Made by a program: the position numbers and the translations under genes | Notes under the pieces: model-generated | What the model saw: only the letters and a program-made list of their open reading frames with translations | Databases searched by the model: none | Told to the model about the DNA's origin: nothing | Part shown: positions 5,275 to 64,000 of the stretch, piece by piece | Position numbering within the stretch: the first letter of the stretch is position 1 | How the letters are laid out: the number at the start of each line of letters is the position of its first letter | Source: an uncultured Nitrososphaerota archaeon | GTDB taxonomy: Archaea > Korarchaeota > Korarchaeia > Korarchaeales > Korarchaeaceae | Length of the DNA: 64,000 nt | NCBI GenBank assembly: GCA_964594835.1 | Contig: CAZQNA010000002.1 | Coordinates: forward strand, 64,001 to 128,000 | Direction: 5' to 3'

Positions 5275-5771
5275 CCCCTCACACCCCCCGCCACCCTCTC
5301 GGCCGCCAGCCTCACGGCCCTGACTATCTTGGCGTAGCCGGTGCACCTGCACAGCACGCCAAGGATCGCCTCCCTCACAGTCCGCTCGTCCGGGTTCGGG
5401 ACGCGGTCGAGCAGCGCCTTGGCCGTCAGGACCATGGCGGGCGTGCAGAACCCGCACTGCACGGCCCCGGCCTCCACGAACGCCTCCTGAACGGGGTGCA
5501 GCCTCTCCGGCTCTCCGATCCCCTCGACCGTGGTGACGCTCCTCCCGTCGACCTGCGGGGCCAGCATCAGGCACGACCTGACCGGGAGGCCGTCCACCAG
5601 CACGGTGCACATCCCGCACTCGCCGGTCTCGCAGCCCCGCTTCACGCTGAGGATCTTCAGCTCGTTCCTCAGGAGGTCCAGCAGCGTGGCGTTAGGCCTG
5701 GTGGTCACCTCCACCTTCCGGCCGTTGAGGGTGAACCTCACCAGGACGGTCCCGTCTCCCTCGACCCTCAC
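5271..5771 (-). CDS. XDH-family (2Fe-2S) small subunit, copy 1
   Basis: GCETGECGMCTV...SC, QCGFCTP and LCRCTGY motifs. Confidence 0.93.
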   Translation of the reverse strand: MRVEGDGTVLVRFTLNGRKVEVTTRPNATLLDLLRNELKILSVKRGCETGECGMCTVLVDGLPVRSCLMLAPQVDGRSVTTVEGIGEPERLHPVQEAFVEAGAVQCGFCTPAMVLTAKALLDRVPNPDERTVREAILGVLCRCTGYAKIVRAVRLAAERVAGGVRG

Positions 5772-6640
5772 GCCGACACACCCCCTGCCCTCTCCAAGGC
5801 CCTCTCAAGGGTCCTCCTCACCAGGGTGACGGACATCTCCTCCCTGTACTCCCTCGACCCCCTCACGTCCGTTATCGGCCTCACGTCAGCCCTCGCCTCC
5901 CTGCTTGCGCTCCTCACGGCCTCCCTGGTAGCCGGCTGACCCCTGAGAGCCTCCTCCACCCTGGAGGCCCTTATCGGCGTCGGGGCCACGGCCCCGAGCG
6001 CGACCCTCGCGTCGACGACCCGCCCCCCGGAGACCTCGACCAAGGCGGCAGCGGAGACTATGGAGAGGGCCCCCTCCCTCACCGTGAGCTTCTCGAAGGC
6101 CGCACTCTGTCCCGGTCGCAACTTCGGGACGACCACCTCCGCCAGGACCTCTCCGACCCCCAGGACCGTCTGCCCCGGCCCCGTGAAGAACCCCTCGACG
6201 GGAACCTCCCTCCTGCCTCCGGGACCGACGATCACCAGCGTGGCCCCGTGGACCATCAGGGGAGGGGCAGTATCCGCCGCCGGTGAGGCGTTGCACAGGT
6301 TGCCCCCTATGGTGGCCGTCGTCTTGATGTGCCAGCTCGCCATTAGCCCGACGGCCTCGCTGAGGACGGGAACCCCGCGGGCGATCTCCTCCGAGTTCTC
6401 TATCTCCCACAGGGTGGTGGCGGCCCCTATCCTGATCCGGTCCCCCTCGTCCCTGATGAACCGTATCTCCTGCAGCCTGCTCAGATCTACGACGTGCCTC
6501 GGGCTCACCAGGCCGGCCCTCATCTTCACGACCAGGTCCGTCCCTCCCGCTATCGCCCTGGCGTCTGGCCCCAGCTCCGAGAGGAGCCTGACGGCCTCCT
6601 CGAGAGAAGCTGGCCTGTGATACTCGAACTCGGGCAGCAT
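5768..6640 (-). CDS. XDH-family FAD-binding medium subunit, copy 1
   Basis: AGGTDL, ATIGGNLCNASPAAD and DVRGS motifs; start MLPEFEYHRP at 6640. Confidence 0.92.
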   Translation of the reverse strand: MLPEFEYHRPASLEEAVRLLSELGPDARAIAGGTDLVVKMRAGLVSPRHVVDLSRLQEIRFIRDEGDRIRIGAATTLWEIENSEEIARGVPVLSEAVGLMASWHIKTTATIGGNLCNASPAADTAPPLMVHGATLVIVGPGGRREVPVEGFFTGPGQTVLGVGEVLAEVVVPKLRPGQSAAFEKLTVREGALSIVSAAALVEVSGGRVVDARVALGAVAPTPIRASRVEEALRGQPATREAVRSASREARADVRPITDVRGSREYREEMSVTLVRRTLERALERAGGVSA

Positions 6641-6783
6641 CTCAACCTGCCCTCCTTGAGTCTGACGCCCAGAGCCCTTCCGGCGGGCCCGGGCGCTCAG
6701 ATCCGCTGGGGACGGCTCCGGCTTCAATAAATAGTTGGAGGAGGGGGAGTGGCCCCCCGGCCAGACGCCAGCCGACCGGGGGT

Positions 6784-7722
6784 TCAGACCCCCAGGATCT
6801 CCTTCACCAGGGCGGCCCTTACGTACATCCCGTTGACGGCCTGCTGGAAGTACTTGGCCTGCGGGAGGGAGTCGACGCTCTCGTCGAGCTCCCACACCCT
6901 GGGCAGCGGGTGCATTATGATGGGGATCTTTCTGAACCTCCTCAGGAAGTCGGCGTCCACCCTGTAGCTCCCCTTCAGCCTCTCGTACTCCTCCGGGTCG
7001 GGGAACCTCTCCTTCTGGAGCCTGGTGACGTAGAGCACGTCGAGTTCCTCGATCACGTCCTCCAGCGTCGAGGTCTTGGAGTACTCCACCCTGCCCTCTA
7101 TCCTCTCCACGACCTCCGGCCTGATCTGCAGGGGGTCGGGGGCTATGTACCGTATCCTGACGCCATCGAACAGGGAGAGCATGTAGGACAGTGAACTCGG
7201 GGTCCTCCCATGCTTCAGGTCGCCCATTATGCCCACAGTCACGCCGTCGACCCTGCCCAGCTCCCTCCAGATAGTGTACACGTCCAGCAGGGCCTGGGTC
7301 GGGTGCTCGTTCCACCCGTCGCCGGCGTTTATCACGGGGGCCTCGCATATCTCCGCCACCTTCGCGGCCATGCCGGGTGTGCCCTGCCTCAGAACGATCA
7401 CGTCGGGGCCGTAGCCGTCCACCATCCTGAGGGAGTCCTCCAGGCTCTCCCCCTTGGCCCTGCTGGTAGCGGCCTCCGGGCCGAAGTCCACCACTGCCCC
7501 GCCCAGCTTGACCATGGCGTAGGTGAAGCTGAGCCTGGTCCTGGTGCTCGGCTCCATGAAGACGGTGGCCATCAGCTTCCCTCTGGCGTAGTCCAGGACG
7601 CCCCTCTCGGCGATCTCCTCTCTCAGCCTCTCGGCCAGCCGGAAGAGCCCCTCCACCTCCTCCCTGGAGAAGTCCAGGGCGGAGATCACGTCCCTACCCT
7701 TCAGGCTACCCAACTCGCGCAC
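6784..7722 (-). CDS. pyrB: Aspartate carbamoyltransferase catalytic subunit (PyrB-like)
   Basis: FMEPSTRT, KGESL, INAGDG..EHPTQALLD, YVTRLQKER and MHPLPR motifs. Confidence 0.85.
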   Translation of the reverse strand: MRELGSLKGRDVISALDFSREEVEGLFRLAERLREEIAERGVLDYARGKLMATVFMEPSTRTRLSFTYAMVKLGGAVVDFGPEAATSRAKGESLEDSLRMVDGYGPDVIVLRQGTPGMAAKVAEICEAPVINAGDGWNEHPTQALLDVYTIWRELGRVDGVTVGIMGDLKHGRTPSSLSYMLSLFDGVRIRYIAPDPLQIRPEVVERIEGRVEYSKTSTLEDVIEELDVLYVTRLQKERFPDPEEYERLKGSYRVDADFLRRFRKIPIIMHPLPRVWELDESVDSLPQAKYFQQAVNGMYVRAALVKEILGV

Positions 7723-9235: not shown

Positions 9236-11632
9236 TCAGCTCAGGCCACCCCCCTTCTCCTGGGCGGATTCCCGCCCTCGGCGCTCCCTCTCCCTGAGGG
9301 CCCTCAGTATCCTCTCGGGAGTGATCGGGAGCTCGTAGAACCTGACCCCTATGGCGTCGTAGATCGCGTTGGCCACGGCGGCCGCGACCGGGTTGCTGGC
9401 GGCCTCCCCTATCCCCTTGGCCCCGAACGGGCCTGTGGGCTCGTAGGTGTTGGCGAATATCACCCTGAAGTCCTCGACTGAGGGTATGTCCCCCGCGGTG
9501 GGGACCTTGTAGTCCGTGATGAACCCCATGTTCTCCAGCGCCCCGGTCTCGGGGTTGTAGGGCGTGTCCTCCAGGACGGCCCAGCCCCAACCCATGACGA
9601 ACCCGCCCTGAACCTGCCCCTCCGCCAGCTCGGGGTTGATCACCGTGCCGATGTCCGCGCCCGCCACCACCCTGACGGGCCTGACCCTGCCCGTCTCGGT
9701 GTCCACCTCCACCTCCACGAAGTAGGCGGTGAAGCTCGGCGGGGCCGCGGTGGCCCTGTAGCTCACCGACGCCGAGATGGACCCCCAGTTCCTCTGCCAG
9801 GCGGTCCTGGCCACCTCCCCAAGGGTCGTCCAGGCGTCCGACCCCTCCACGTAGATTACGGCGTCCTTCAGCTCCTCGTCGTACCTCATCCTCAGGGCCT
9901 CGGGGCCCACGGCCACGTCCAGGATCCTGACCGCGTACTCCAGGATCTTCCTCTTCACCTCCCTGGCCGCCCTCCTGGCGGCCTCCCCTCCCACGTAGAC
10001 GCCCCTGGAGGCGTGGGTGCAAACGTCGTAGACGGTGGTGGAGCTGTCGGACCAGACTACGTTCACCTTCTCGAGGGGGATGCAGAGTTCCTCCGCTATG
10101 ATCTTGGCGTGGGCGTCCAGCGTGCCGCCGCCGTGGTCCTGGAGGGCCGTCACGTAGTCCACGCTCCCGTCCTCGTTCACCTTGAGGAACGCCCCCGAGT
10201 AGTCGATCACCGACCCGGACAGGGGTCCGCCGGCCCCCGAGGTGTGGAATCCCCTGGCCACTCCTATGCCCCTCCTGTACCTGCCGGTCTGCTCCCCGGG
10301 CCTCGGCCTGCTCCCCCAGCCGATCAGCTCCGCCCCCCTCCTCATGAGTTCAGGCACGCCGTCGCTCCTGATGATGCTCTTCACGGTGGGCCCCTGCCCC
10401 CAGAACAGGTCGCCCTTGCCCACGTAGTTCCTCAGCCTGAACTCCACCGGGTCCATGCCCACCTCCTCGGCCAGCTCGTCGACGACGGTCTCGACCGCCC
10501 AGGTGACCTGCGGGTTCCCATAGCCCCTGAGGGCGCAGCTGGGGACCTTGTTGGTGTAGATCGCCTTCCCCACGTACCTGATGGGTCCCCACTTGTAGAG
10601 GGAGACGAACCAGCCCAGCGCCGTGCCGAGCAGCGGGTACGGCTGTATCTGGTGGGCCCCTATGTCCATGACGTTCTCGAACTCGGCCCCCGAGAGCCTC
10701 CCGCTGCTCTTCGCCCCCGCCCTGATCCTCATGTGCATCTCGAAGGAGACGTGGTCGTGCATGATGTCCTCCTCCCTGGTGAGGGCTATCCTGACGGGCC
10801 TCCTCGCCTTCCTGCTGAGGGCGACCGCCACGAGGGTCACTAGGTTTGTGTGGATGCTCGACCCGAACCCCCCGCCCAGGAAGACCTTCTTGACCCTCAC
10901 CCTGCTCTGGGGTATGCCGAAGACCTGGGAGATGAGGATCTTGGTGTTGTGGACCGTCTGGGTCGTGGTCCAGACCGTGACGCCCCCGTCGGGGTCCGGC
11001 CTGCTCACGGCCACCTTGGGCTCGGGCTGGAGGTGGTACCTGCGGTTGGTGTGGAACCTCCTCTCTATCACCACGTCGGCCTCCGACAGGGCCCGGTCCA
11101 CGTCCCCCTCCGAGTACTCGAGCGTGCAGGCGACGTTGTCCTGCACGTCTACCCAGGCCCTTCCCCTCATTATCCTCTCGTGGATGGCCGGGGACCCGGG
11201 CCTCATGGCCTCGAAGGGGTCGAGGAGGGGCCTGTAGACCCTGACGGGCTCCAGCCTGATGGCCTCCAGCGCCCTCTGGGCCGCCTCCTCCGAGGTCGCT
11301 GCTACTGCGGCGACTGGCTCGCCCACGAACCTCGGGTGGTCCGTCAGGACCCTCCAGTCCTTGAAGGTGTCCTCCTCCACGCTCACCAGCCTCGGGTTGA
11401 AGAGCACGTCGGGCACGTCCCTCGGGGTCAGCACGACGGCCCCCATTCTCTCGGCCTCCGAGGCGTCGACCCTGACCTCCGCGTGGGCGTAGGGGCTCTT
11501 GAGGATCCGGCCGTGGAGCATGCCGGGGAGCCAGACGTCGTAGGCGTAGGTGGCCCTGCCGGTGGCCTTGAGGACCCCGTCCTTCCTGCCGACCCTGACC
11601 CCGACAAACCTGTACCGGCCCTCGGCGCTCAA
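9236..11632 (-). CDS. XDH-family molybdopterin-binding (large) subunit, copy 2
   Basis: KATGRATY, GGGFGS, LRGYG, THASRG and AKGIGE motifs. Confidence 0.92.
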   Translation of the reverse strand: MSAEGRYRFVGVRVGRKDGVLKATGRATYAYDVWLPGMLHGRILKSPYAHAEVRVDASEAERMGAVVLTPRDVPDVLFNPRLVSVEEDTFKDWRVLTDHPRFVGEPVAAVAATSEEAAQRALEAIRLEPVRVYRPLLDPFEAMRPGSPAIHERIMRGRAWVDVQDNVACTLEYSEGDVDRALSEADVVIERRFHTNRRYHLQPEPKVAVSRPDPDGGVTVWTTTQTVHNTKILISQVFGIPQSRVRVKKVFLGGGFGSSIHTNLVTLVAVALSRKARRPVRIALTREEDIMHDHVSFEMHMRIRAGAKSSGRLSGAEFENVMDIGAHQIQPYPLLGTALGWFVSLYKWGPIRYVGKAIYTNKVPSCALRGYGNPQVTWAVETVVDELAEEVGMDPVEFRLRNYVGKGDLFWGQGPTVKSIIRSDGVPELMRRGAELIGWGSRPRPGEQTGRYRRGIGVARGFHTSGAGGPLSGSVIDYSGAFLKVNEDGSVDYVTALQDHGGGTLDAHAKIIAEELCIPLEKVNVVWSDSSTTVYDVCTHASRGVYVGGEAARRAAREVKRKILEYAVRILDVAVGPEALRMRYDEELKDAVIYVEGSDAWTTLGEVARTAWQRNWGSISASVSYRATAAPPSFTAYFVEVEVDTETGRVRPVRVVAGADIGTVINPELAEGQVQGGFVMGWGWAVLEDTPYNPETGALENMGFITDYKVPTAGDIPSVEDFRVIFANTYEPTGPFGAKGIGEAASNPVAAAVANAIYDAIGVRFYELPITPERILRALRERERRGRESAQEKGGGLS

Positions 11633-55394: not shown

Positions 55395-56759
55395 CTACCG
55401 GCCGCCCCCCGAGTCCTCCGACCTCAGGGCCCTCCTCCTCCTGCTGGAGGTCCTGACCTCCGCGGTCCCCGCGGTGACCACCTCGTAGAGGACCGCCCTC
55501 TTCCCCTCCCTCTTCCTCAGTATCCTCCCGAGCCTCTGTATGAACTCCCTCCTGCTGCCCGTCCCGCCGAGTATGATGCCCACCCTGGCGTCGGGGACGT
55601 CCACGCCCTCGTCCAGCACCTTGGACGTCACCACCTTCGTCACCCCTCCGGTCCTGAACGCCGAGAGTATCTCCTGCCTCTCCCTCTGACTGGTCCTGTG
55701 AGTTATCAGGGGGATCAGGAACCTCCTGCTGACCTCCTCGGCCATCTCGTTGTACTCGGTGAATATGATCACCTTGTCATCCCTGTGGCTCTCGAGGAGC
55801 TCCTCCAGGACCTCTAGCTTCCTCCTCGCATTTATCGCCAGCCTCCTGGCTCTGTTCCAGCTGATAAGGGCCCGCCTGGCCGCCCTGCTTGACCCGCTCC
55901 TCATAACCAGCCTCCTGAAGTCTTCGAGCGAGCTCATGCTCAGGCCCGTCCTCCTCAGCCCGTCCCTGTACTCAGAGATCAGCCTCTCGTACTCCCTCCT
56001 CTCCTCCTCGGTGAGCCTCACCCTTATCCCGACGGTGTCGAACTCAGCCAGGTGCTCTCCGGCCAGCTCCCTGGGACCGAGCCTGTAGACCACCCCTCCC
56101 ACGCGGGTCAGGAGGTGGACGTGCCTCCCGTCCTCCCTCTCCAGGGTGGCCGTGAGGCCAAGCCTGTAGGGGGAGGCCAGGCTCTCGGCTATCTCGATGT
56201 ACCCCTCGGCCGCCAGGTGGTGGACCTCGTCGAACACCGCCAGGAGGAACCTGTTCCCTATCTCGGGGGCCCTGAGGTAGGCAGAGTCGTAAGTTATGAC
56301 CGTGATCCCCCTGAGCTCCGACCTCCCACCGCCGACCACGCCCACATCCACGCCGAAGGCCTCCGAGATCCTCTCGGCCCACTGTGTGAGGAGCGGGAGC
56401 GTGGGGACCACCACCAGCGTTGAGACGCTGAGCTCCTCCATGGCCTTCAGCGCCACGAACGTCTTCCCCGCGCCGGTGGGCAGGACCACGATTCCCCTCC
56501 GCCTCTCCATCCAGGCGTCGAGCGCCTCCCTCTGGAAGGGCTTCAGCCTGATGTCCGACCTGAGGGGCGGGACTGGGAGTGGGTCCATCACCTGGTCGAC
56601 GGCGTGGGGGAGGGCCTCCCTGATCTCCCCGTACCTGTAGGCCATGGCCCGCAGGGCCCCCACCCTCGAGTCCCAGGAGCAGTGGGGGGCCGACCTGGCT
56701 CCCCAAACCAGCATGGTTCCCCTGTCGTACGTGATCCTCACAGGGCCCCCCAAACTCAC
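55395..56759 (-). CDS. xpb: XPB/Rad25-type SF2 helicase
   Basis: LPTGAGKT, DEVH, GLTAT.ERED, DEGVDVP and IQRLGRILR motifs. Confidence 0.88.
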   Translation of the reverse strand: MSLGGPVRITYDRGTMLVWGARSAPHCSWDSRVGALRAMAYRYGEIREALPHAVDQVMDPLPVPPLRSDIRLKPFQREALDAWMERRRGIVVLPTGAGKTFVALKAMEELSVSTLVVVPTLPLLTQWAERISEAFGVDVGVVGGGRSELRGITVITYDSAYLRAPEIGNRFLLAVFDEVHHLAAEGYIEIAESLASPYRLGLTATLEREDGRHVHLLTRVGGVVYRLGPRELAGEHLAEFDTVGIRVRLTEEERREYERLISEYRDGLRRTGLSMSSLEDFRRLVMRSGSSRAARRALISWNRARRLAINARRKLEVLEELLESHRDDKVIIFTEYNEMAEEVSRRFLIPLITHRTSQRERQEILSAFRTGGVTKVVTSKVLDEGVDVPDARVGIILGGTGSRREFIQRLGRILRKREGKRAVLYEVVTAGTAEVRTSSRRRRALRSEDSGGGR

Positions 56760-56934: not shown

Positions 56935-58710
56935 CTACCCCTCGTACTTCCTCTTCAGCTCTTGGTACAGCTCCTCAGAGATCTCCCCCCTCCTGTACCT
57001 CTCCTCGAGCTTTTTCAGGACCTCAGACCGATGGTCAGCCTTCTCCAGGCCTTGACCGCCCCTCCTCCTCAGCAGCGCGAGCGCCGCAAGCGCAGAAGCC
57101 AGGGCGGCCGCGCCGAGGATCGCCCACGTCCGACCTCCGAGACCCCCGGCGGACGCGCGTCCCGGCTCGGTGGTCGGAGAGCTGGTGGCAGCCCCCGTTG
57201 GCTCGGTGGTGGGGGGCGCGGTCGAGCCGGGGACGCCTCCGGGGCCGGGCTGCGCGGGGGACATCGGAGGCCTCGGCGTCCCGCGGGGGCGTCCGCCGAA
57301 CTCGTAGGGCCCGATGTCGGGCCCGTCTCCCACGGGTCTCCGTGCAGAGTCAAGGTCGAAGGGCGTGTACCTCTCCGGGTAGCCTGCGTCGATCGCCGGG
57401 GAGCCTGGGGAGAGGTGGTAGTCGTCCGACTCGGGGTCGACGAACTCGGGGTCAGCGGTCAGGCTGTGGGCCCCGTTTCCGGTCGCGCGGGTCCAGGCGC
57501 CCGAGGCGATGTCCTCCCGGGTCACGTCCCTCTGCTCGCCCTCCAGCCATATCTCGGAGTCGGCCCTGCTGTACCATATGTTGTGGTCCTCCACGAACTC
57601 CACGCCCGCGCCGATGTAGATCCCGACGGGCTCGTCCGGAGGACCGTTGAACGCGAAGATCGAGCTGTACACCATGACCCTCAGGTCGTCCTGGGGGGCG
57701 AGGGGCTCGGGCTCCGGGTATCCCGCAACAAGGGAGTAGGCCCTGTTCTCGATGGAGTTGAAGGCAACGAGGGAGTTCAGGACCATGTAATTTCCGTTGT
57801 AAACCAGGTCTATCCCCGTGAGGCCGTTCCTGTAGATCGCCGTGTTCTGAACGAACCCCGTGGTCCAGAGTTTCACCCCCTCCATGCCGTTGTGGTGGAC
57901 CTTGCAGCGGTCCACGAGCCCAGCGTAGAAGATGCCGTAGAGGGGGTTTCTGGACCCCAGGTCGACGCCGTCCCCGCCGTTGTGGTGGATGTCGCACCCA
58001 ATCACTATCCACTGCTCCCCCGACTCAGCGCCTATCCCGTCGGCCCCGAAGCCGCCCTCGGCCCCGTTCCCGTAGATGGACGACCAGGCCACGGTCACGT
58101 CCGAGCAGGGGCCGGGGGTGCAGTCTATGCCCGAGTACAGGTTGTCGTGGATCAGCGAACGGGCCACGGTGACGTTGTCCACGGGCCCGTTCGCCGGCTG
58201 CTGTCCGCTGTAGCCCGTGGTCATGTGTATCCCCACCTCGCAGCCCGCCGCCTCGACCTCCTCCAAGTGGACGTGACTGTTGCCGCCGTGGAGGGAGATG
58301 CACCAGACGTCCGCCCCGAGCACCCTCAGGTTGAGGAGCCTCACGTGAGACACCCCGGGGGCGAGCGTGATCCCGTTAGAGCCCAGACCGGAGGCGTCCA
58401 CGATCACGACCTCGCCCTCCGCCCCCCTGATCTCTATCGGGGCGTCCGGGGTACCCGAGACGTTGATCACAACCGCCTCGTGGTAGGTCCCTCCCCTGAT
58501 CACGAGGGTGTCCCCGGGCTCGAGCTCGGAGACCCCCCTTGATATGGTGGCCCAGGGCCTCGACTCGGTCCCCGGGTTGGAGTCGCTCCCGTCGGGCGAC
58601 ACGTAGAACGTCCTCCCGCCCCCCTCCGCCCAGCCCCGGGCGACCGCCAGCGCGAGCAGGGTCAGGGAGAGGAGGGCCGCGGAGAGCACGAGAAGGTGCC
58701 TCTTGTCCAT
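56935..58710 (-). CDS. Secreted right-handed beta-helix protein (DUF1565-like N-terminus) with C-terminal TM and SHOCT-like tail
   Basis: YVSPDGSDSNPGT...PW.TI, GDT..IRGGTY, repeated IHDN/IYGN/IHHN strands, SPAIDAG...PDIGPYE; LEERYRRGEISEELY. Confidence 0.8.
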   Translation of the reverse strand: MDKRHLLVLSAALLSLTLLALAVARGWAEGGGRTFYVSPDGSDSNPGTESRPWATISRGVSELEPGDTLVIRGGTYHEAVVINVSGTPDAPIEIRGAEGEVVIVDASGLGSNGITLAPGVSHVRLLNLRVLGADVWCISLHGGNSHVHLEEVEAAGCEVGIHMTTGYSGQQPANGPVDNVTVARSLIHDNLYSGIDCTPGPCSDVTVAWSSIYGNGAEGGFGADGIGAESGEQWIVIGCDIHHNGGDGVDLGSRNPLYGIFYAGLVDRCKVHHNGMEGVKLWTTGFVQNTAIYRNGLTGIDLVYNGNYMVLNSLVAFNSIENRAYSLVAGYPEPEPLAPQDDLRVMVYSSIFAFNGPPDEPVGIYIGAGVEFVEDHNIWYSRADSEIWLEGEQRDVTREDIASGAWTRATGNGAHSLTADPEFVDPESDDYHLSPGSPAIDAGYPERYTPFDLDSARRPVGDGPDIGPYEFGGRPRGTPRPPMSPAQPGPGGVPGSTAPPTTEPTGAATSSPTTEPGRASAGGLGGRTWAILGAAALASALAALALLRRRGGQGLEKADHRSEVLKKLEERYRRGEISEELYQELKRKYEG

Positions 58711-58927
58711 TAAAGGGGTCAAGTTTTGTATGTCTTAAGGTTTTTCGAACTAGTCTGTTTCAGCGTGAAGACTCCCCGCGGGGAAGAGGGGGACTGATCC
58801 CGCTCCAACCGCCTCCGCGCTCTGCCCCTAGTGAAACCGCCTCAGGACCGCCCCTTCCGCCCGCCCGCGCCCCTGCACACCTGTAATCATTTATTACAGG
58901 AGGCAAATACAGTACGCACGTCGAGAA

Positions 58928-59179
58928 TTGAGCGCCGTGATCAGCTTCAGAGTTGACAGGAAGCTCAAGGAGAGGATGGACAGGTTGAGGCACGTCAACT
59001 GGAGCGCCGTGGTGAGGAGGGCCATCGAGGAGGTCGTCAGGCGGGAGGAGGCGATGATGCGTCGTAAGGGCAGGTCCGCCATGCGGGCGGCCGCCATCAG
59101 GACGGATACGCTCCGCAGGGAGGTGCCCGGTTGGAGCGGGGTGGAGGAGGTAAGGCGCTGGAGAGAGGCGAGGCGGTGA
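58928..59179 (+). CDS. VapB-type RHH antitoxin
   Basis: VISFRV...LK..M...VNWS.VVR.AIEE pattern; overlaps the PIN gene. Confidence 0.8.
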   Translation: MSAVISFRVDRKLKERMDRLRHVNWSAVVRRAIEEVVRREEAMMRRKGRSAMRAAAIRTDTLRREVPGWSGVEEVRRWREARR

Positions 59180-59586
59180 TCGACGCCTCCGTGGTGGTGA
59201 AGTGGTTTGTGAGGGAGGAGTACACGGAGGAGTCCCTCAGGCTCAGGGACGCCTACGTCGACGGCCTGGTGGACCTCCTCGCCCTGTGTCTCCTGCCCAT
59301 GGAGGTTCTCAGCGCCCTGAAGCACTCCGGGGGATTCGGGGAGGATGAACTGAAGGAGGTCTCCTCGGTCCTCGAGGGCTACCAGTTCACCCTGTACGAC
59401 CTATCGGGAAGCTACGCGGAGAGGACCGTCGAGGTCGCCATGAGAAAGGGTCTGACAATATACGACGCCTCTTACGTGGCGCTCGCCCTGATTAACAAGA
59501 CCCTCCTGTACACGGCCGAAGAGAGGCTCATCAGAAAGGCGTCGAGCCTAGGAGTGGTGAGGCACGTGGCCGAGTTCACACCCTGA
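59176..59586 (+). CDS. VapC-type PIN toxin
   Basis: VIDASVVVKWF, E, and TIYDASYVALA motifs. Confidence 0.85.
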   Translation: MIDASVVVKWFVREEYTEESLRLRDAYVDGLVDLLALCLLPMEVLSALKHSGGFGEDELKEVSSVLEGYQFTLYDLSGSYAERTVEVAMRKGLTIYDASYVALALINKTLLYTAEERLIRKASSLGVVRHVAEFTP

Positions 59587-59654: not shown

Positions 59655-60992
59655 TCAGGTCACCTCCGGGGGGGACTCGGGGTAGGCCCTCAGCCTGGCC
59701 TCCAGGGGGCAGCCTCCCCCGCACGCGCTGAAGAACGGGCAGGCCCGGCAGGCGTCTCCGGCGAACCCCCTTGACCTTATGGCCTCGCAGAGCGGGTGGT
59801 CCCATATGGGGCCCCAGTCGTCCCTCAGGATGTTGCCGAGGGGCTCGTAGTAGCTCTGGCAGGGTATCACGGTCCCGTCGGGCTCGACGGCCATGGTTAT
59901 CGAGCAGGCCGAGCAGAACTTCACCCCGAACTGGTGCTCCAGCGGGTTGAGCTCGCAGTACCTGGTGACGCCGTACCACCTGAACTCCATGTCCCTCTCC
60001 GCCGCGGCGTCCGCCATCTCCTCCAGAGCCTCGAGCGTCTCCTCCGGCGTGGGCTCGAACCACTCCCTCACCTCCAGGCCCCTGCCGCTGTATATGAGCC
60101 GGTTGGCCGACACTGCGTCCGCCCCCAGCTCGTCGGCCAGCTCGACCAGCCCGACGACGTCGCCCAAGTTCAGCCTGCTGAGGGTGGCGTTGACGTCAAC
60201 GTATATCCCGAGGTCCGCCACGTTCCTGATCCCCTCGACGGTCTCCCTCCAGCTCCCGGGGACCTGGGTTATCCTCTCGTGGACCTCAGGCCTGTGGGAC
60301 TCCAGCGTGACCTGAACGTAGTCCAGCCCCGCCCGCACGAGGGCCTCGGCGAAGGACCTGTCCGCCAGCCTCCTGCCGTTCGTCACCAGCCCCGCCACCA
60401 GCCCGAGCCGCTGGGCCTCCCACACGAGGTCCACCAAGTCGTCCCTCAGGGTCGGCTCTCCTCCCGTGAATACGACGTTCGGTACTCCGAGGTCTGCGAC
60501 CCTCCTCAGGACCTTTCTCCACTCCTCCGTGCCCAGTTCGGGCTTCTGGGACTCGGGGGATCCGCTGTAGCAGTGGACGCACCTGTTGTTGCACCTATAG
60601 GTGAGGGCTAGGTCCATCCTGAATGGCGCCGAGGTCCTGACGGAGAGGGGGTCGACCCTCGCGAACCCGAGGTCGGTGATGGGGCAGACCTCCTCCGCGT
60701 CTAGGAAGGCCTTGAGCCTCCTGACGAAGTCCCAGTAGTCCCTCTCCGCCCTCTCCCTCGTGAGCCCGCGAAACGCCCTCACGGCCCTCTTTACCGCGAC
60801 CTCCGGTGGGTCCCCGCTGAGAAACGACTCAGCGAAGAGGGTGCCCGATCTGTTGAGGTACGCGGACCTCCTGGCGGCCACCACCAGCACCCCGACGCCC
60901 GACGGGTCCACCCTCAGGTGGACCTTCTGGCCCCTGTAGACGAAGCTTCGCATCCGCGCCTTCCCCCTGCCGCTCCTCCCTCCGACTCCCAT
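59655..60992 (-). CDS. Radical SAM/SPASM protein with N-terminal PqqD-like RiPP recognition element
   Basis: CNNRCVHC, FTGGEP and TNG motifs; SPASM CSAC...DG.VIPC...CRACPF...CGGGCP; N-terminal YLNRSG beta3-alpha3 pattern. Confidence 0.9.
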   Translation of the reverse strand: MGVGGRSGRGKARMRSFVYRGQKVHLRVDPSGVGVLVVAARRSAYLNRSGTLFAESFLSGDPPEVAVKRAVRAFRGLTRERAERDYWDFVRRLKAFLDAEEVCPITDLGFARVDPLSVRTSAPFRMDLALTYRCNNRCVHCYSGSPESQKPELGTEEWRKVLRRVADLGVPNVVFTGGEPTLRDDLVDLVWEAQRLGLVAGLVTNGRRLADRSFAEALVRAGLDYVQVTLESHRPEVHERITQVPGSWRETVEGIRNVADLGIYVDVNATLSRLNLGDVVGLVELADELGADAVSANRLIYSGRGLEVREWFEPTPEETLEALEEMADAAAERDMEFRWYGVTRYCELNPLEHQFGVKFCSACSITMAVEPDGTVIPCQSYYEPLGNILRDDWGPIWDHPLCEAIRSRGFAGDACRACPFFSACGGGCPLEARLRAYPESPPEVT

Positions 60993-62692
60993 CAGCCAGC
61001 ACCCCCTCCGGCGCAGGCGCAGGCGCACGACACGCAGGCGCACGCGCACGCGCAGGACACGCAGGCGCAGACGCAGGAGCTCACGGCCGCCCTCGTCCGG
61101 CTCCTCGGCCTGGTCCTCTCGGGCGCTATGAGCCGGGCCACCCTGTCGGCCAGCCCCTCGGCGCTGTCCGCGACGGAGACGAAGACCGACTCGACCCCCC
61201 TGGCCACCTCGTCGGCTGCCTTCTCCAGGGACACGACCGGCCCCTCCGCCCTGCGCTCGATCTCCGTGACGGTCCTGGGCTCCCTCGCGGGCTCAGCCCC
61301 GGGGGCGCCGGGGGCGGGCCTGGTGGTTATGACCACGCCCCTGTCCCAGTCAGGCCACGTCCACCTCCAGATCCTGTACATCCACCAGTCGCTCGGCAGC
61401 ACGACTTGGGCAGGCTCCGGAGTTCTCATTGTCTCCCTGAGCCTCTCGAAGAAGTTCTCGTCTATCATGAGCCACTCGATCCACTCGTCCAGGACCTCCC
61501 TCTTCCTCTCGGGAGGCGCGGACTGGAGCTCCCTCCAACCCTCCGCGATCTTCTTGCGGTAGAAGTCGACCGTCTCCCTCCTGGAGAAGCCGGACAGCTT
61601 GCGGTAGGTGGCCCTGTGCACGGCCTTAATCAGCCTCGCGAGGCAGTCCTCGTCCAGGGAACCGTCGTCCTGGACGCAGCGGACGAGCCTCCTCAGGTAG
61701 TACCTCAGCGGGCCCCTGTCGTCCTTCACCCTGACCCTCAGGGGCCTCAGGCCCTCGAGCTCCAGGACGCCCGACTTGAGGCCCTCGACCAGGGCCACCG
61801 TAACGACCCTGGAGAACTCCCTCTTTCCGGATTCCAGCAGCATCAGGTATGCCGCCTCGGGCGGGTTCAACCTCTTCTGAGGACCCAGGGCCTCTATCCC
61901 TATCCAGGGGGGCTCGTACTCTTCCAGGTACCTCCTCGTCCGGGAGTAGAGGACGTAGGCCGCTATGAGCGCGAACGGGGCCAGAATAACCAGGACGCCG
62001 AGCAGCTGCCCGATCCTGTACAGCAGGCCCTTGGAGCCGGGCGCCTCGACGTAGTGCTCCACGTAGCGCGACGGGAAGCTCACCCCGACCTCGAACCTCT
62101 CCCCGGGGTAGAGGCCGCGCCTCTCCCAGTACAGGGCGACCCTCCCGTCGGCGCTCACGAGGTTATCGTAGTCCGGGTAGTTCCTGACTTCAGAGGGCTC
62201 CACGCCCTCCGGGAGGATCACCATGAGCCTGAGGTCCTCGACGGGCGCGTCCTCAAACCAGGAGGGGGCGAACTGGATCCCCACGTTGCCGGGGTTGGTC
62301 TCGTCGGCGTAGACGAAGTCCTCTACCAGCGCCGTGAACGTGAAGGTCCTAGACTCCCCCGCCTCTATGGGGCTGCTCGGGTGGAGCTCCACCGCGTAGT
62401 AGTCCCCCTCCCTGACCTCGTCGTAGTCCACGGGGAGCCCGGTGTCCAGCTCGCTCGCGTCCAACACCTCGAAGCTCCCGACAGGCATTCCGACCCTCAC
62501 GAACCTCCTGATGGACCCGGAGTCCACCGTCACGGTCAGATTGTAGCTCAGGAGGACCGTCCCGTCGCTGTCCACCTGCAGGACCACCCACTCGCGCGCG
62601 ATCCTGTAGGAGAGACCCTGCGCGGCCGCCGGCTGCGCCGTGGCGACGGCGGCTGCGGCAAGCAGAATCAGAGCCGCGGCCCTTCTGGACAT
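60992..62692 (-). CDS. Single-pass membrane protein (DUF2207-like ectodomain) with Cys-rich C-terminal tail
   Basis: Signal peptide, beta-rich ectodomain (VLQVDSDGTV), one TM, cytoplasmic domain ending SSCVCACVSCACACACVSCACACAGGGAG. Confidence 0.8.
   Translation of the reverse strand: MSRRAAALILLAAAAVATAQPAAAQGLSYRIAREWVVLQVDSDGTVLLSYNLTVTVDSGSIRRFVRVGMPVGSFEVLDASELDTGLPVDYDEVREGDYYAVELHPSSPIEAGESRTFTFTALVEDFVYADETNPGNVGIQFAPSWFEDAPVEDLRLMVILPEGVEPSEVRNYPDYDNLVSADGRVALYWERRGLYPGERFEVGVSFPSRYVEHYVEAPGSKGLLYRIGQLLGVLVILAPFALIAAYVLYSRTRRYLEEYEPPWIGIEALGPQKRLNPPEAAYLMLLESGKREFSRVVTVALVEGLKSGVLELEGLRPLRVRVKDDRGPLRYYLRRLVRCVQDDGSLDEDCLARLIKAVHRATYRKLSGFSRRETVDFYRKKIAEGWRELQSAPPERKREVLDEWIEWLMIDENFFERLRETMRTPEPAQVVLPSDWWMYRIWRWTWPDWDRGVVITTRPAPGAPGAEPAREPRTVTEIERRAEGPVVSLEKAADEVARGVESVFVSVADSAEGLADRVARLIAPERTRPRSRTRAAVSSCVCACVSCACACACVSCACACAGGGAG
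60995..61075 (-). repeat. Coding (Cys-X)n repeat: 10 Cys in 21 codons followed by AGGGAG
   Basis: TGC-GCC/GCG/GTG repeats with synonymous variation. Confidence 0.9.
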
Positions 62693-62736: not shown

Positions 62737-64000
62737 TCAGGTCGGCTTCACGGGCGGCGGCTCCTCCCTCCTGGCCGGCGCCTCGTGCACAAGCCTCCTC
62801 ACGACCCTCCTACTGGCCTTGTTGATCAGGTACGCGACGGCGAACATCCCGAGGATCGAGATGGGAGAGGAGAGCGATATCCGGGGACCTCCCATCCTCG
62901 AGACCGTGAAGAGAAGCCCCTCCAGGACGCTCATCACCGGGGCGAGGGCGAGGTAGGTGAAGAGCAGCCTGAGGGCCAGTATGAGCGAGGCGGCGCCCCC
63001 GGTTATCACCGTGATTATCCTCCTCTCAAAGTAGGTGTAGGTGTGCTGGAGGGTGGAGATGAACACCCCCATCGAGAGGACGGTCAGCAGGAACTGGAGG
63101 AGGGCCGTCTGGGTCACTAGGAGCTTTGATGCGCTGAGTATGAGGTAGATTATCACCAGCCTGATGAGGGAGCCGTACATCCACCTCCTGAACTCCACGT
63201 CCTCGACCACCCTGTTGGCGCCCTCGCTGAGTTCCTGGAGGAAGGACCTGACCACCTGGGGCAGCGTCCCGATCGCGGTTCCGGCCAGCCTGTGGACCCT
63301 CTTCGTCACCTCGGAGACCAGAGTGAGGTTAAACCCGTAGGCGAACATCGCCGCCAGGGCGACCACGAGCGGGAGCTGATTGAGGAGGCCGGCGATTGCT
63401 ATGAGCCCGAACTCCCCGGTGTTGGCCAGGACCATGGCCATCTCGGCCGCGTCCTGAGGCTCGAAGCCCGCCAGTATGGCCGAGGAGAAGATGACGAACC
63501 CCCTCAGCGCGTAGGCCACGATGGCCCAGATCAGGCCGTAGCCCGCGGCCAGCATGAAGGTACCCAGGTCGACGCTGGCCCGCAGGCCGAACGGGAACGA
63601 GGACACGAAGCCCAGGAGCGCGAGCATGAGGTACCCCTCGACGACGTGGAATGTCTCCCTGTCGAAGCCCCCCAGAGAGAGCATTATCGACCCTATGAAG
63701 ACGGGTATCGCCTCTGGCACGTGGAGGCTGTGCCCCACCGAGATGAGGAGGAACAAGTAGAGGAGGGTGGTCAGGACCCTCGCGTCCACCCGGTCGGTGG
63801 CCTTGAGGAACCTGTCGAAGGGCTTCGCCGCCAGGTACAGGACGGGTACCAGGAGGGCCGTGATCGCCAGGAGGTCTATCACCTCGGGCCTCAGGGCCGA
63901 GATGTCCCCCTCGCCAGCGAGCACGCCGAAGCTCACCAGGGCCACGGCCAGCGAGTCCTCCATGACGGAGAGGGCTATGCCGACGTTCGCGATCCTCTCC
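62737..64000 (-). CDS. Cation:proton antiporter (CPA2-like), 5' end outside window
   Basis: IAL.VMED and GEFGLI motifs; many TMs; frame open to the window edge. Confidence 0.72.
   Translation of the reverse strand, partial: ERIANVGIALSVMEDSLAVALVSFGVLAGEGDISALRPEVIDLLAITALLVPVLYLAAKPFDRFLKATDRVDARVLTTLLYLFLLISVGHSLHVPEAIPVFIGSIMLSLGGFDRETFHVVEGYLMLALLGFVSSFPFGLRASVDLGTFMLAAGYGLIWAIVAYALRGFVIFSSAILAGFEPQDAAEMAMVLANTGEFGLIAIAGLLNQLPLVVALAAMFAYGFNLTLVSEVTKRVHRLAGTAIGTLPQVVRSFLQELSEGANRVVEDVEFRRWMYGSLIRLVIIYLILSASKLLVTQTALLQFLLTVLSMGVFISTLQHTYTYFERRIITVITGGAASLILALRLLFTYLALAPVMSVLEGLLFTVSRMGGPRISLSSPISILGMFAVAYLINKASRRVVRRLVHEAPARREEPPPVKPT

Follow-up and report, generated by a model that had tools for sequence, protein, structure and literature searches.

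Gene organization of the locus

The stretch of DNA analyzed here (the window, 64,000 nucleotides of contig CAZQNA010000002.1) belongs to an archaeal genome of 1.82 Mb with 64.9% G+C, whose phylum is represented by 43 species genomes in the collection used for this study. Its minus strand carries two overlapping genes, encoding a membrane protein that terminates in a Cys-Ala repeat and an enzyme that combines a radical S-adenosylmethionine (SAM) core, a SPASM region, and an N-terminal recognition element (RRE) of the kind found in the maturation of peptides that are made by the ribosome and modified after translation (RiPPs). We propose below that the tail of the membrane protein is the substrate of this enzyme. 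The two genes are positioned as follows:

60995-62692, minus strand: membrane protein of 566 residues, proposed substrate and possible distant DUF2207 relative (stop codon at 60992-60994)
59655-60992, minus strand, stop codon included: RRE, radical SAM, and SPASM enzyme of 445 residues, the ATG of which overlaps the upstream stop codon

The coordinates of the open reading frames (ORFs) and the reading of the junction confirm the layout proposed in an initial annotation of this DNA, with both genes on the minus strand and a TGATG overlap. At the junction, GGC TGA TGG, the A of the TGA codon doubles as the first base of the enzyme ATG at 60992, and the second gene is translationally coupled to the first. 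A second in-frame Met, 13 codons into the enzyme frame, may be an alternative true start.

The Cys-Ala tail

60995-61075, minus strand: Cys-Ala tail (residues 540-566) with 10 Cys and then GGGAG, proposed modification core

The C-terminal end of the 566-residue protein, SSCVCACVSCACACACVSCACACAGGGAG, contains 10 Cys within a protein that has only ~2% Cys overall, and its codons vary in the window between GCC and GCG for Ala, GTC and GTG for Val, and TCC and TCG for Ser. All 17 homologs returned by a protein search (33-89% identity) finish in the same motif. A scan of the collection yielded at least 599 pattern matches and at least 80 confirmed loci, on which the tail and adjacency counts given here rest. 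According to their labels, these 80 loci comprise 50 from Bathyarchaeia, 9 from Thermoproteota/Crenarchaeota, 5 labeled "uncultured archaeon", 9 from other archaea (Methanocella, Methanomicrobia, three Thermococci, Theionarchaea, Halobacteria, Nanoarchaeia, and a metagenome-assembled genome of Asgard Promethearchaeota), and 7 from bacteria, including Chloroflexota, Bacillota, and Nitrospirales. The tail is present in 80/80 loci, 63 being recognized by the first pattern and the remaining 17 by inspection, and the shared 16-residue core reads CACACAC-[V/A/D]-[S/G]-CACACA-[G/S/H]-G-G. An alignment of 74 sequences shows little or no variation in tail columns 547-561, and the residues at the very C-terminal end differ between tails (AG, VG, AR, GH, GF, or R).

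At the DNA level, the core is written as 80 distinct strings in the 80 loci; Cys is encoded by TGT (322 occurrences) as well as TGC (238), and all four Ala, all four Val, and all six Ser codons are used. Because every one of these DNA versions is distinct and the peptide is conserved, strong selection must act on the tail as a protein sequence, and it is not a DNA repeat, as the initial annotation had suggested from the synonymous variation within the window itself.

Searching 1.84 billion cluster representatives with the family profile reports 1830 proteins when the threshold is E ≤ 1e-3, a number that falls to 863 for E ≤ 1e-10 and to 354 for E ≤ 1e-30, the last figure counting clusters at 50% identity. 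Among the best 150 matches, 100 carry the full core inside their last 45 residues, and 28 display a shorter (Cys-Ala)n-GGG end, mostly AGGGR following a Gly/Ser-rich linker as in the bacterial loci, one of them having only three Cys. The other 22 are devoid of a C-terminal tail: 18 of them are at most 486 residues long and stop inside the domain, two match the outer domain only, and two (P0159 and P0167) possess an internal tail, indicating that a free C-terminus is not essential. The internal tail of P0159 and P0167 is followed by a conserved extension of ~90 residues.

Association of the tail with the enzyme

An ortholog of the enzyme is detected by tblastn in 77 of the 80 loci, of which 74 have it downstream of the target gene on the same strand; it is located upstream in L025 and on the other strand in L051 and L076. 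The genomes of the three loci devoid of the enzyme (L009, L073, and L074) possess full-length orthologs elsewhere (493, 378, and 400 bits, respectively; 43-50% identity). Tail-bearing homologs thus keep their radical SAM neighbor, a point on which the initial annotation had made its proposal depend. One apparent loss of the enzyme, in L054, was dismissed as the gene is interrupted by a run of N, and the enzyme match in L081 is partial like that of L054. Among the 75 loci in which distances were measured, 69 have the enzyme downstream, with a median of 63 nt between the target stop codon and the first aligned enzyme residue, and 64 fall within 150 nt. This distance count omits L075, L078, L079, L081, and L082, in which the target match is weaker than the 1e-20 cut; all five exhibit a tail and a radical SAM match, which lies directly downstream in L078, L079, and L082 and farther downstream (~720 nt) in L075, whereas L081 has just a partial one.

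Co-occurrence was further analyzed in two genome sets. Within the phylum (43 genomes), the target profile has a match in 37 genomes and that of the enzyme in 36, with both proteins in 36 genomes, neither in six, the target only in one (G009), and the enzyme only in none. As a sister genome has the enzyme upstream of the target, we suspect that the G009 contig ends before the enzyme gene. The second set consists of 121 genomes of the class around the Bathyarchaeia-type genome G048, in which the system is patchy. The enzyme (E ≤ 1e-80) is found in 18 of these, always on the contig and strand of the target and directly downstream of it in 17, both matches being partial in G056, while target matches on their own amount to two partial and two weak distant ones (~1e-11). 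No genome of either set contains the enzyme without the target. Related genomes are not independent of one another, and these counts are therefore given without a statistic.

The radical SAM/SPASM enzyme

60702-60956, minus strand: PqqD-like RRE domain, residues ~13-97 (model fold, PF05402, and family profile)
60141-60605, minus strand: radical SAM core, residues 130-284 (PF04055, E 5.7e-28; C134, C138, and C141)
59709-59957, minus strand: SPASM region, residues 346-428 (PF13186, E 2.1e-8)

The CxxxCxxC motif and the SPASM Cys set already noticed in the enzyme lie in regions matched by the Radical_SAM and SPASM Pfam families, the latter (PF13186) with 34.7 bits for a cut-off of 21.5. The C134-x3-C138-x2-C141 motif is kept in 69/69 orthologs. 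Of the SPASM Cys residues 346, 360, 378, 415, 418, 424, and 428, which include a C-x2-C-x5-C-x3-C block, six are found in 69/69 orthologs and C346 in 68/69, and an eighth C-terminal Cys, absent from the window enzyme, occurs in 51/69. SPASM domains use seven or eight such Cys for two auxiliary clusters. Foldseek analysis of the AlphaFold2 model, which has a predicted local distance difference test score (pLDDT) of 90.3, reports SkfB as the top hit (1.4e-18), followed by peptide-bound SuiB (2.0e-17 over ~470 columns), with PqqE (3.5e-12), anSME (1.9e-11), GDGT-MAS (3.3e-11), MoaA, and viperin among the further folds.

In the model, the N-terminus is formed by four strands (residues 13-19, 22-28, 34-38, and 42-46) succeeded by three helices (residues 48-59, 63-73, and 79-97). 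When the first 111 residues of 42 orthologs were aligned, 37/42 matched the PqqD family PF05402 at E ≤ 10 (best 1.6e-7), and the resulting family profile reports hits among the sequences of the Protein Data Bank with the lasso-peptide RREs TfuB1 (3.7e-6) and TbiB1 (0.049). The PqqD matches of the orthologs, the lasso RRE matches, and the predicted fold together identify the N-terminus as a PqqD-like RRE, as had been surmised from the sequence.

Among the best 25 NCBIfam families listed for the enzyme, none reaches its cut-off. The best match is TIGR02109 PqqE (147 bits for a cut-off of 381.35); TIGR04403 SkfB scores 102.9 bits (cut-off 300), TIGR03974, the SCIFF maturase/CteB family, 12.1 bits over the SPASM part only (cut-off 425), and TIGR04463 (rSAM_vs_C_rich), the CrpC family, 26.5 bits (cut-off 525) at G000:C2:124120-124620, inside the window enzyme gene. 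Other matches below their cut-offs are with MftC (126 bits), SbtM (72.8 bits), NirJ2, GeoRSP, and MoaA. The enzyme is thus located outside the CrpC, SCIFF, SkfB, and PqqE families, and its architecture fits that of a RiPP-type radical SAM/SPASM peptide maturase.

Several related genes were encountered during this analysis. In the genome of the window, but outside the window, a standalone PqqD-family ORF of 89 residues (46.9 bits) lies at G000:C1:163604-163804 on the plus strand, ~64 kb from a second radical SAM/SPASM gene (496-residue frame) at G000:C1:227932-228948 on the minus strand. The Chloroflexota loci L075 and L070 encode, after the first enzyme, a second RRE-bearing paralog with ~31% identity to the window enzyme. 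In L075 (L075:7407-7943 and 9747-10949, plus strand) the second paralog is devoid of CxxxCxxC, and a 178-residue ORF, read from its translation as an IS200-type transposase, separates the target from the first enzyme.

The membrane protein

62621-62692, minus strand: putative N-terminal signal peptide, residues ~1-24 (predicted hydrophobic helix 3-18, then ...AQPAAAQG)
62048-62620, minus strand: extracytoplasmic all-beta domain, residues ~25-215 (strands 28-207, pLDDT mostly >94)
61925-62029, minus strand: single transmembrane (TM) helix, within residues 222-256 (model helix 222-256, then YSRTRRY)
61238-61924, minus strand: cytoplasmic alpha/beta and helical domain, residues 257-485 (high-confidence elements 277-450; resembles the DUF2207 C-terminal domain)
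61121-61237, minus strand: amphipathic "leader-like" segment, residues 486-524 (helices 489-510 and 514-522; column conservation)

The membrane protein was modeled with AlphaFold2 at a pLDDT of 83.6, and the model agrees with the signal peptide, ~200-residue ectodomain, single TM segment, and ~310-residue inner domain of the initial annotation. We read the end of the predicted signal peptide as being of the Ala-x-Ala cleavage type. The YSRTRRY sequence following the TM helix places positive charge on the inner side, and we infer a type-I topology with the N-terminal beta domain outside. In the inner domain, residues Y259, P262, E267, G270, E279, Y378, W386, and W407 are invariant across the 74 sequences. 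The alpha/beta region and its helices reach residue 522, and residues 525-563 are disordered in the model. The leader-like segment that ends this structured part has the consensus F-A-N-N-I-A-..-E-...-N-I-V-.-N-.-E-K-F-A-N-.-I-.-P; among the 74 sequences, its best kept columns are A493 (72), E501 (62), A515 (59), V508 (58), F514 (57), and E512 (55). A variable basic and Pro-containing linker of 15-20 residues connects it to the Cys-Ala core.

In the outer beta domain, Y50 and N51 are invariant and T53 nearly so (alignment A1), forming a Y-N-L-T sequon. Foldseek matches this domain (residues 28-207) to the lumenal domain of ribophorin I/OST1, a subunit of eukaryotic oligosaccharyltransferase (8b6l_O, E 8.5e-10, overall TM score ~0.25), and to the N-domains of M1 peptidases. 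Five relatives (P0158, P0164, P0170, P0176, and P0179) are longer, with 766-838 residues, and their profile match begins at residue ~233-246 and is split into two or three stretches. P0158 contains two tandem copies of the outer beta domain and terminates in the Cys-Ala tail.

Pfam and NCBIfam return no family for the membrane protein at E ≤ 0.01, and the two DUF2207 models, PF09972 (N-domain) and PF20990 (C-domain), do not match it even at E ≤ 10. Each of these models is weakly matched by 3/18 relatives, with best E values of 0.0019 and 0.0024, respectively, and neighbors in the ESM Atlas carry DUF2207 names (a "DUF2207 ... (Fragment)" cluster at 0.94 and another at 0.88). The protein is at most a remote relative of DUF2207. 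DUF2207 proteins have the same layout, with an outer beta domain, a TM helix, an inner domain, and a low-complexity C-terminal end. In the bacterial members of the window family, the Gly/Ser-rich linker directly precedes the Cys-Ala motif. In the portion of the DUF2207 literature covered, no mention of a Cys-Ala tail or of a radical SAM partner was found.

Candidate substrates and variant cassettes

No Cys-rich small ORF other than the tail is found between 56500 and 64000, the other matches being out-of-frame ORFs over known genes. A search for small tail-bearing proteins returned 184 matches at E ≤ 1, and the 26 short ones that were inspected are all C-terminal pieces of the same family, leading us to reject a separate short precursor. 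The absence of a nearby precursor stated in the initial annotation is thereby upheld, and with neither a free precursor nor a nearby Cys-rich ORF, the tail is left as the one plausible peptide substrate. The conserved neighbors of the 81 loci clustered and of 12 regions from the phylum include neither a peptidase nor an exporter. The suggestion that the tail could be releasable consequently finds no support, the more so as it is internal in two relatives.

Across the genera of the phylum (the same 12 regions), only the succession of target and enzyme is conserved. ORF clustering over the 81 loci identifies one further frequent neighbor, a protein of ~115-120 residues encoded directly upstream of the target in 56/81, frequently overlapping its start, and present in most Bathyarchaeia loci. 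It comprises two TM segments, a C-terminal zinc ribbon, and an EEPKW end (L054:5648-5995, plus strand), and its Pfam matches are limited to weak ones with Zn_ribbon_3 and DUF7575. Being missing from the window and from the 12 regions of the phylum, it is placed outside the minimal system and was rejected as a third component. The gene upstream of the target in the window (62737-63963), encoding a 408-residue membrane protein without a Pfam family, was rejected as well since it is not conserved with the pair.

A variant cassette is found in genus g5 of the same phylum, with the following organization in L100 (G047:C1:75500-84500):

5771-7213, minus strand: enzyme, 480 residues
4582-5787, minus strand: coiled-coil protein, 401 residues
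2814-4604, minus strand: target homolog, 596 residues

The g5 enzyme is divergent, scoring ~390-400 bits as compared with 480-636 in the other genomes, and it is separated from the target by the 401-residue coiled-coil gene. The g5 target retains the leader-like segment, but its tail is made up of Ala-Cys-His-Ser repeats. Enzyme clade and tail type therefore change together.

Relation to characterized systems

Sactipeptide and ranthipeptide maturases (SkfB, AlbA, and CteB) exhibit the same three-domain architecture as the window enzyme, SkfB being its top structural hit, and act on a Cys-rich core near the C-terminus of their substrates. The mirrored, hairpin-like core of the tail recalls the nested bridges of sactipeptides. 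However, the substrates of these maturases are free peptides of ~40-60 residues that are cleaved and exported. PqqE provides the best curated sequence match and a structural match, and the N-terminal domain of the window enzyme resembles its partner PqqD. In contrast with PqqE substrates, the tail contains no Glu or Tyr to be cross-linked, and the score stays far below the family cut-off. No other pqq genes are found among the conserved neighbors, although no search was aimed at them. The radical SAM/SPASM enzyme QhpD introduces intrachain Cys thioethers into the gamma subunit of quinohemoprotein amine dehydrogenase (QHNDH), a polypeptide that stays in the protein. The acceptors of QhpD are Asp and Glu, and its substrate is a small soluble subunit. 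QHNDH is named as such a case of thioethers within a protein by the paper that describes CrpC (PMC13692751).

CrpC, from Methanococcus voltae, combines an RRE, a radical SAM core, and a SPASM domain. Its substrate is the 29-kDa protein CrpA, which is encoded next to it and whose C-terminal Cys repeats receive thioethers, with -2 Da links in CAGM, CAVD, CPLV, and similar motifs (PMC13692751). The initial annotation knew of no characterized system like the one in the window; CrpA/CrpC, characterized since, now answers that statement. Both systems associate an archaeal RRE, radical SAM, and SPASM enzyme with a large protein instead of a short peptide; in both, Cys motifs are repeated in the C-terminal region of that protein, the product remains, or here would remain, a protein, and a role related to metals is suspected. 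However, the CrpC family TIGR04463 is clearly distinct from the window enzyme, and the covered text describes CrpA without a membrane segment, with an N-terminal leader-like region and with 17-residue repeats containing C-x-x-Q/D. In the window, the leader-like segment immediately precedes the (Cys-Ala)n core, and the proposed substrate is the predicted cytoplasmic end of the 566-residue membrane protein. The CrpC survey applied a filter of 5% Cys for proteins above 250 residues (PMC13692751), and with its ~2% Cys the window protein falls below it and would be missed by such a Cys-content screen. CrpA/CrpC, published in 2026, is the closest characterized analogue, from a different enzyme family.

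A literature search that left aside the supplements of PMC13692751 (Supplemental Data set 1 and Figure S3, with further radical-SAM-associated Cys-rich proteins) found no pair formed by a Cys-Ala-tailed membrane protein and a radical SAM enzyme, and queries with the motif strings gave nothing but unrelated or DNA matches. The modification of an adjacent Cys-rich protein by a SPASM enzyme is already known in principle. As far as this search shows, what is new is the enzyme clade, the cytoplasmic end of a membrane protein as substrate type, the invariant (Cys-Ala)n motif, and a housekeeping-like distribution.

Proposed maturation of the tail and alternative explanations

We propose that the two genes form a maturation cassette, in which the enzyme modifies the tail of the neighboring protein, probably by thioether cross-links, and we assign this proposal a probability of roughly 60%. 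The RRE would dock on the leader-like segment (residues 486-524) of the membrane protein encoded by the adjacent gene, and the radical SAM site would take hydrogen from residues of the tail. Cys sulfurs might then bond to nearby carbons, resulting in several intrachain thioethers of the sactionine or ranthionine type. The core, CACACAC-VS-CACACA-GGG and widened to 10 Cys in the window, contains two Cys-Ala half-sites mirrored about V-S, which such bridges could lock into a rigid hairpin or ladder. A hairpin of this kind would suit nested bridges from Cys to the backbone or to side chains, such as occur in sactipeptides. The cross-linked product would remain joined to the membrane protein, and at a guess the finished tail might serve as a stable metal- or partner-binding module. 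The position of the leader-like segment ahead of the core follows the usual leader-then-core order of RiPP precursors, and this segment is the candidate docking site. Thioether chemistry is suggested by the enzyme architecture, the best structural hits, the Cys-rich nature of the substrate, and the CrpC precedent.

Several observations weigh against this proposal. Cys, Ala, Val, Ser, and Gly are the sole residues of the main tail. Ranthipeptides use Asp, Asn, Gln, or Thr as acceptors. None of these four acceptors, present in the CrpA motifs of the published text covered, is found in the tail. The best sequence matches of the enzyme, PqqE, NirJ2, GeoRSP, MoaA, and MftC, indicate a kinship that does not point to thioethers. 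Concerning the RRE, the window enzyme itself matches PF05402 with only 13.4 bits (E 0.1, residues 37-95, profile positions 4-63 of 67), below the Pfam cut-off of 23.4, and a whole-genome scan with PF05402 did not flag its N-terminus. The C-x-C repeats and the Cys-His variant of g5 resemble plain metal ligands, making an unmodified metal-binding tail possible. Co-folding of the enzyme alignment with target residues 470-566 gave a score of 0.01 for a mark of 0.32, which carries no weight for or against binding.

The last of these readings can be taken further, with the tail as a metallothionein-like metal or Fe-S module that is never modified and the enzyme as its obligate partner for another reason: the tail might tether the enzyme to the membrane or pass clusters or electrons, and the enzyme might act elsewhere, its substrate being, for instance, a small molecule or a lipid of the membrane. 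Metallothioneins classically bind metal through repeated C-x-C, the Cys and His of the g5 tail are both metal ligands, the usual thioether acceptors are missing from the main tail, and the curated matches of the enzyme include the cofactor-pathway enzymes NirJ, AhbC, AhbD, and MoaA. Moreover, anaerobic archaea possess lipid-modifying radical SAM/SPASM enzymes, represented by the structural hit GDGT-MAS and by Gms, whose N-domain is made up of six helices according to the part of its description covered (PMC11186832). The window enzyme, however, bears an RRE, a domain for peptide recognition; we rejected a lipid-modifying enzyme such as Gms or Tes on the grounds that the beta-strand and three-helix PqqD-like domain differs from the helical N-terminal or alpha domain that covers their active site. 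The strict one-to-one co-occurrence and the translational coupling are, in addition, a signature of enzyme-substrate pairs in this superfamily, and the tail type shifts along with the enzyme clade. We consequently hold the unmodified metal module to be distinctly improbable.

Alternatively, the enzyme would modify the tail through a different chemistry, such as formation of a sulfur heterocycle or of formylglycine from Cys, C-alpha epimerization, or carbon-carbon cross-linking, to yield a cofactor-like or metal-chelating structure tethered to the protein. The closest curated families, PqqE and MftC, perform carbon-carbon coupling or decarboxylation, the thio(seleno)oxazole maturase SbtM is among the matches, anSME, a Cys/Ser oxidizer, is among the structural hits, and bufferins, as far as their report is covered, are Cys-derived copper chelators made by other classes of enzymes (PMC12452194). 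Nevertheless, all these family scores stay far under their cut-offs, and the tail offers no aromatic or acidic residue for PqqE- or MftC-type reactions. The C-terminal residues vary among tails, which together with the internal tails of P0159 and P0167 argues against a C-terminal decarboxylation, and we consider a non-thioether chemistry unlikely. Lastly, the Cys-Ala run could be imagined to result merely from low-complexity drift or from a repeated (TGCGCN)n unit in the DNA, with the adjacent radical SAM gene being a coincidence, as the window DNA does form a GC-rich hexamer-like repeat within a G+C-rich genome. This explanation is refuted: the peptide is invariant from archaea to bacteria, its DNA differs in all 80 copies, with Ser encoded by both AGY and TCN codons, and adjacency and co-occurrence are seen in two independent genome sets.

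Other genes in the window

Downstream of the pair, two plus-strand ORFs, convergent with the radical SAM gene at its 3' end, likely form a VapBC-type pair. Further along the window, two minus-strand genes encode a secreted protein and a helicase:

58928-59179, plus strand: 83-residue ORF without a Pfam match, overlapping the next
59131-59586, plus strand: 151-residue PIN-domain protein (E 6.3e-7)
56935-58722, minus strand: secreted right-handed beta-helix protein of 595 residues (PF13229, 9.8e-13), with a stalk rich in Pro and Thr, a TM segment in its C-terminal part, and a short, charged end that is helical
55395-56759, minus strand: archaeal XPB/Rad25-type helicase with ResIII, ERCC3_RAD25_C, and XPB_DRD domains

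Biological implications

RiPP-type radical SAM enzymes have been studied almost solely for small secreted peptides, and cases in which a whole protein is modified are few. The system described here is large (the 354 clusters at E ≤ 1e-30), old, and widespread, with members in many groups of anaerobic archaea and several of bacteria; it is near-universal in its own phylum, where the target occurs in 37/43 genomes, and the motif proposed as substrate forms part of a membrane protein. This distribution and the membrane fusion point to cell physiology and not to antibiotic warfare. For an uncharacterized enzyme clade, the pair offers an easily testable candidate substrate of ~100 residues, and for DUF2207-like proteins a first point of entry. 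More tentatively, and with odds that we regard as low, the matured tail could constitute a new protein-tethered, sulfur-rich prosthetic structure, such as a thioether ladder or a metal cage of modified Cys, carried by a DUF2207-type membrane protein at its cytoplasmic end, with a housekeeping role in anaerobes, for example in metal or iron-sulfur handling or in redox sensing at the membrane. If this is true, the large DUF2207 superfamily would gain its first function as well as its first post-translational chemistry, and RiPP machinery would have been recruited to core cellular processes in Bathyarchaeia and their archaeal relatives.

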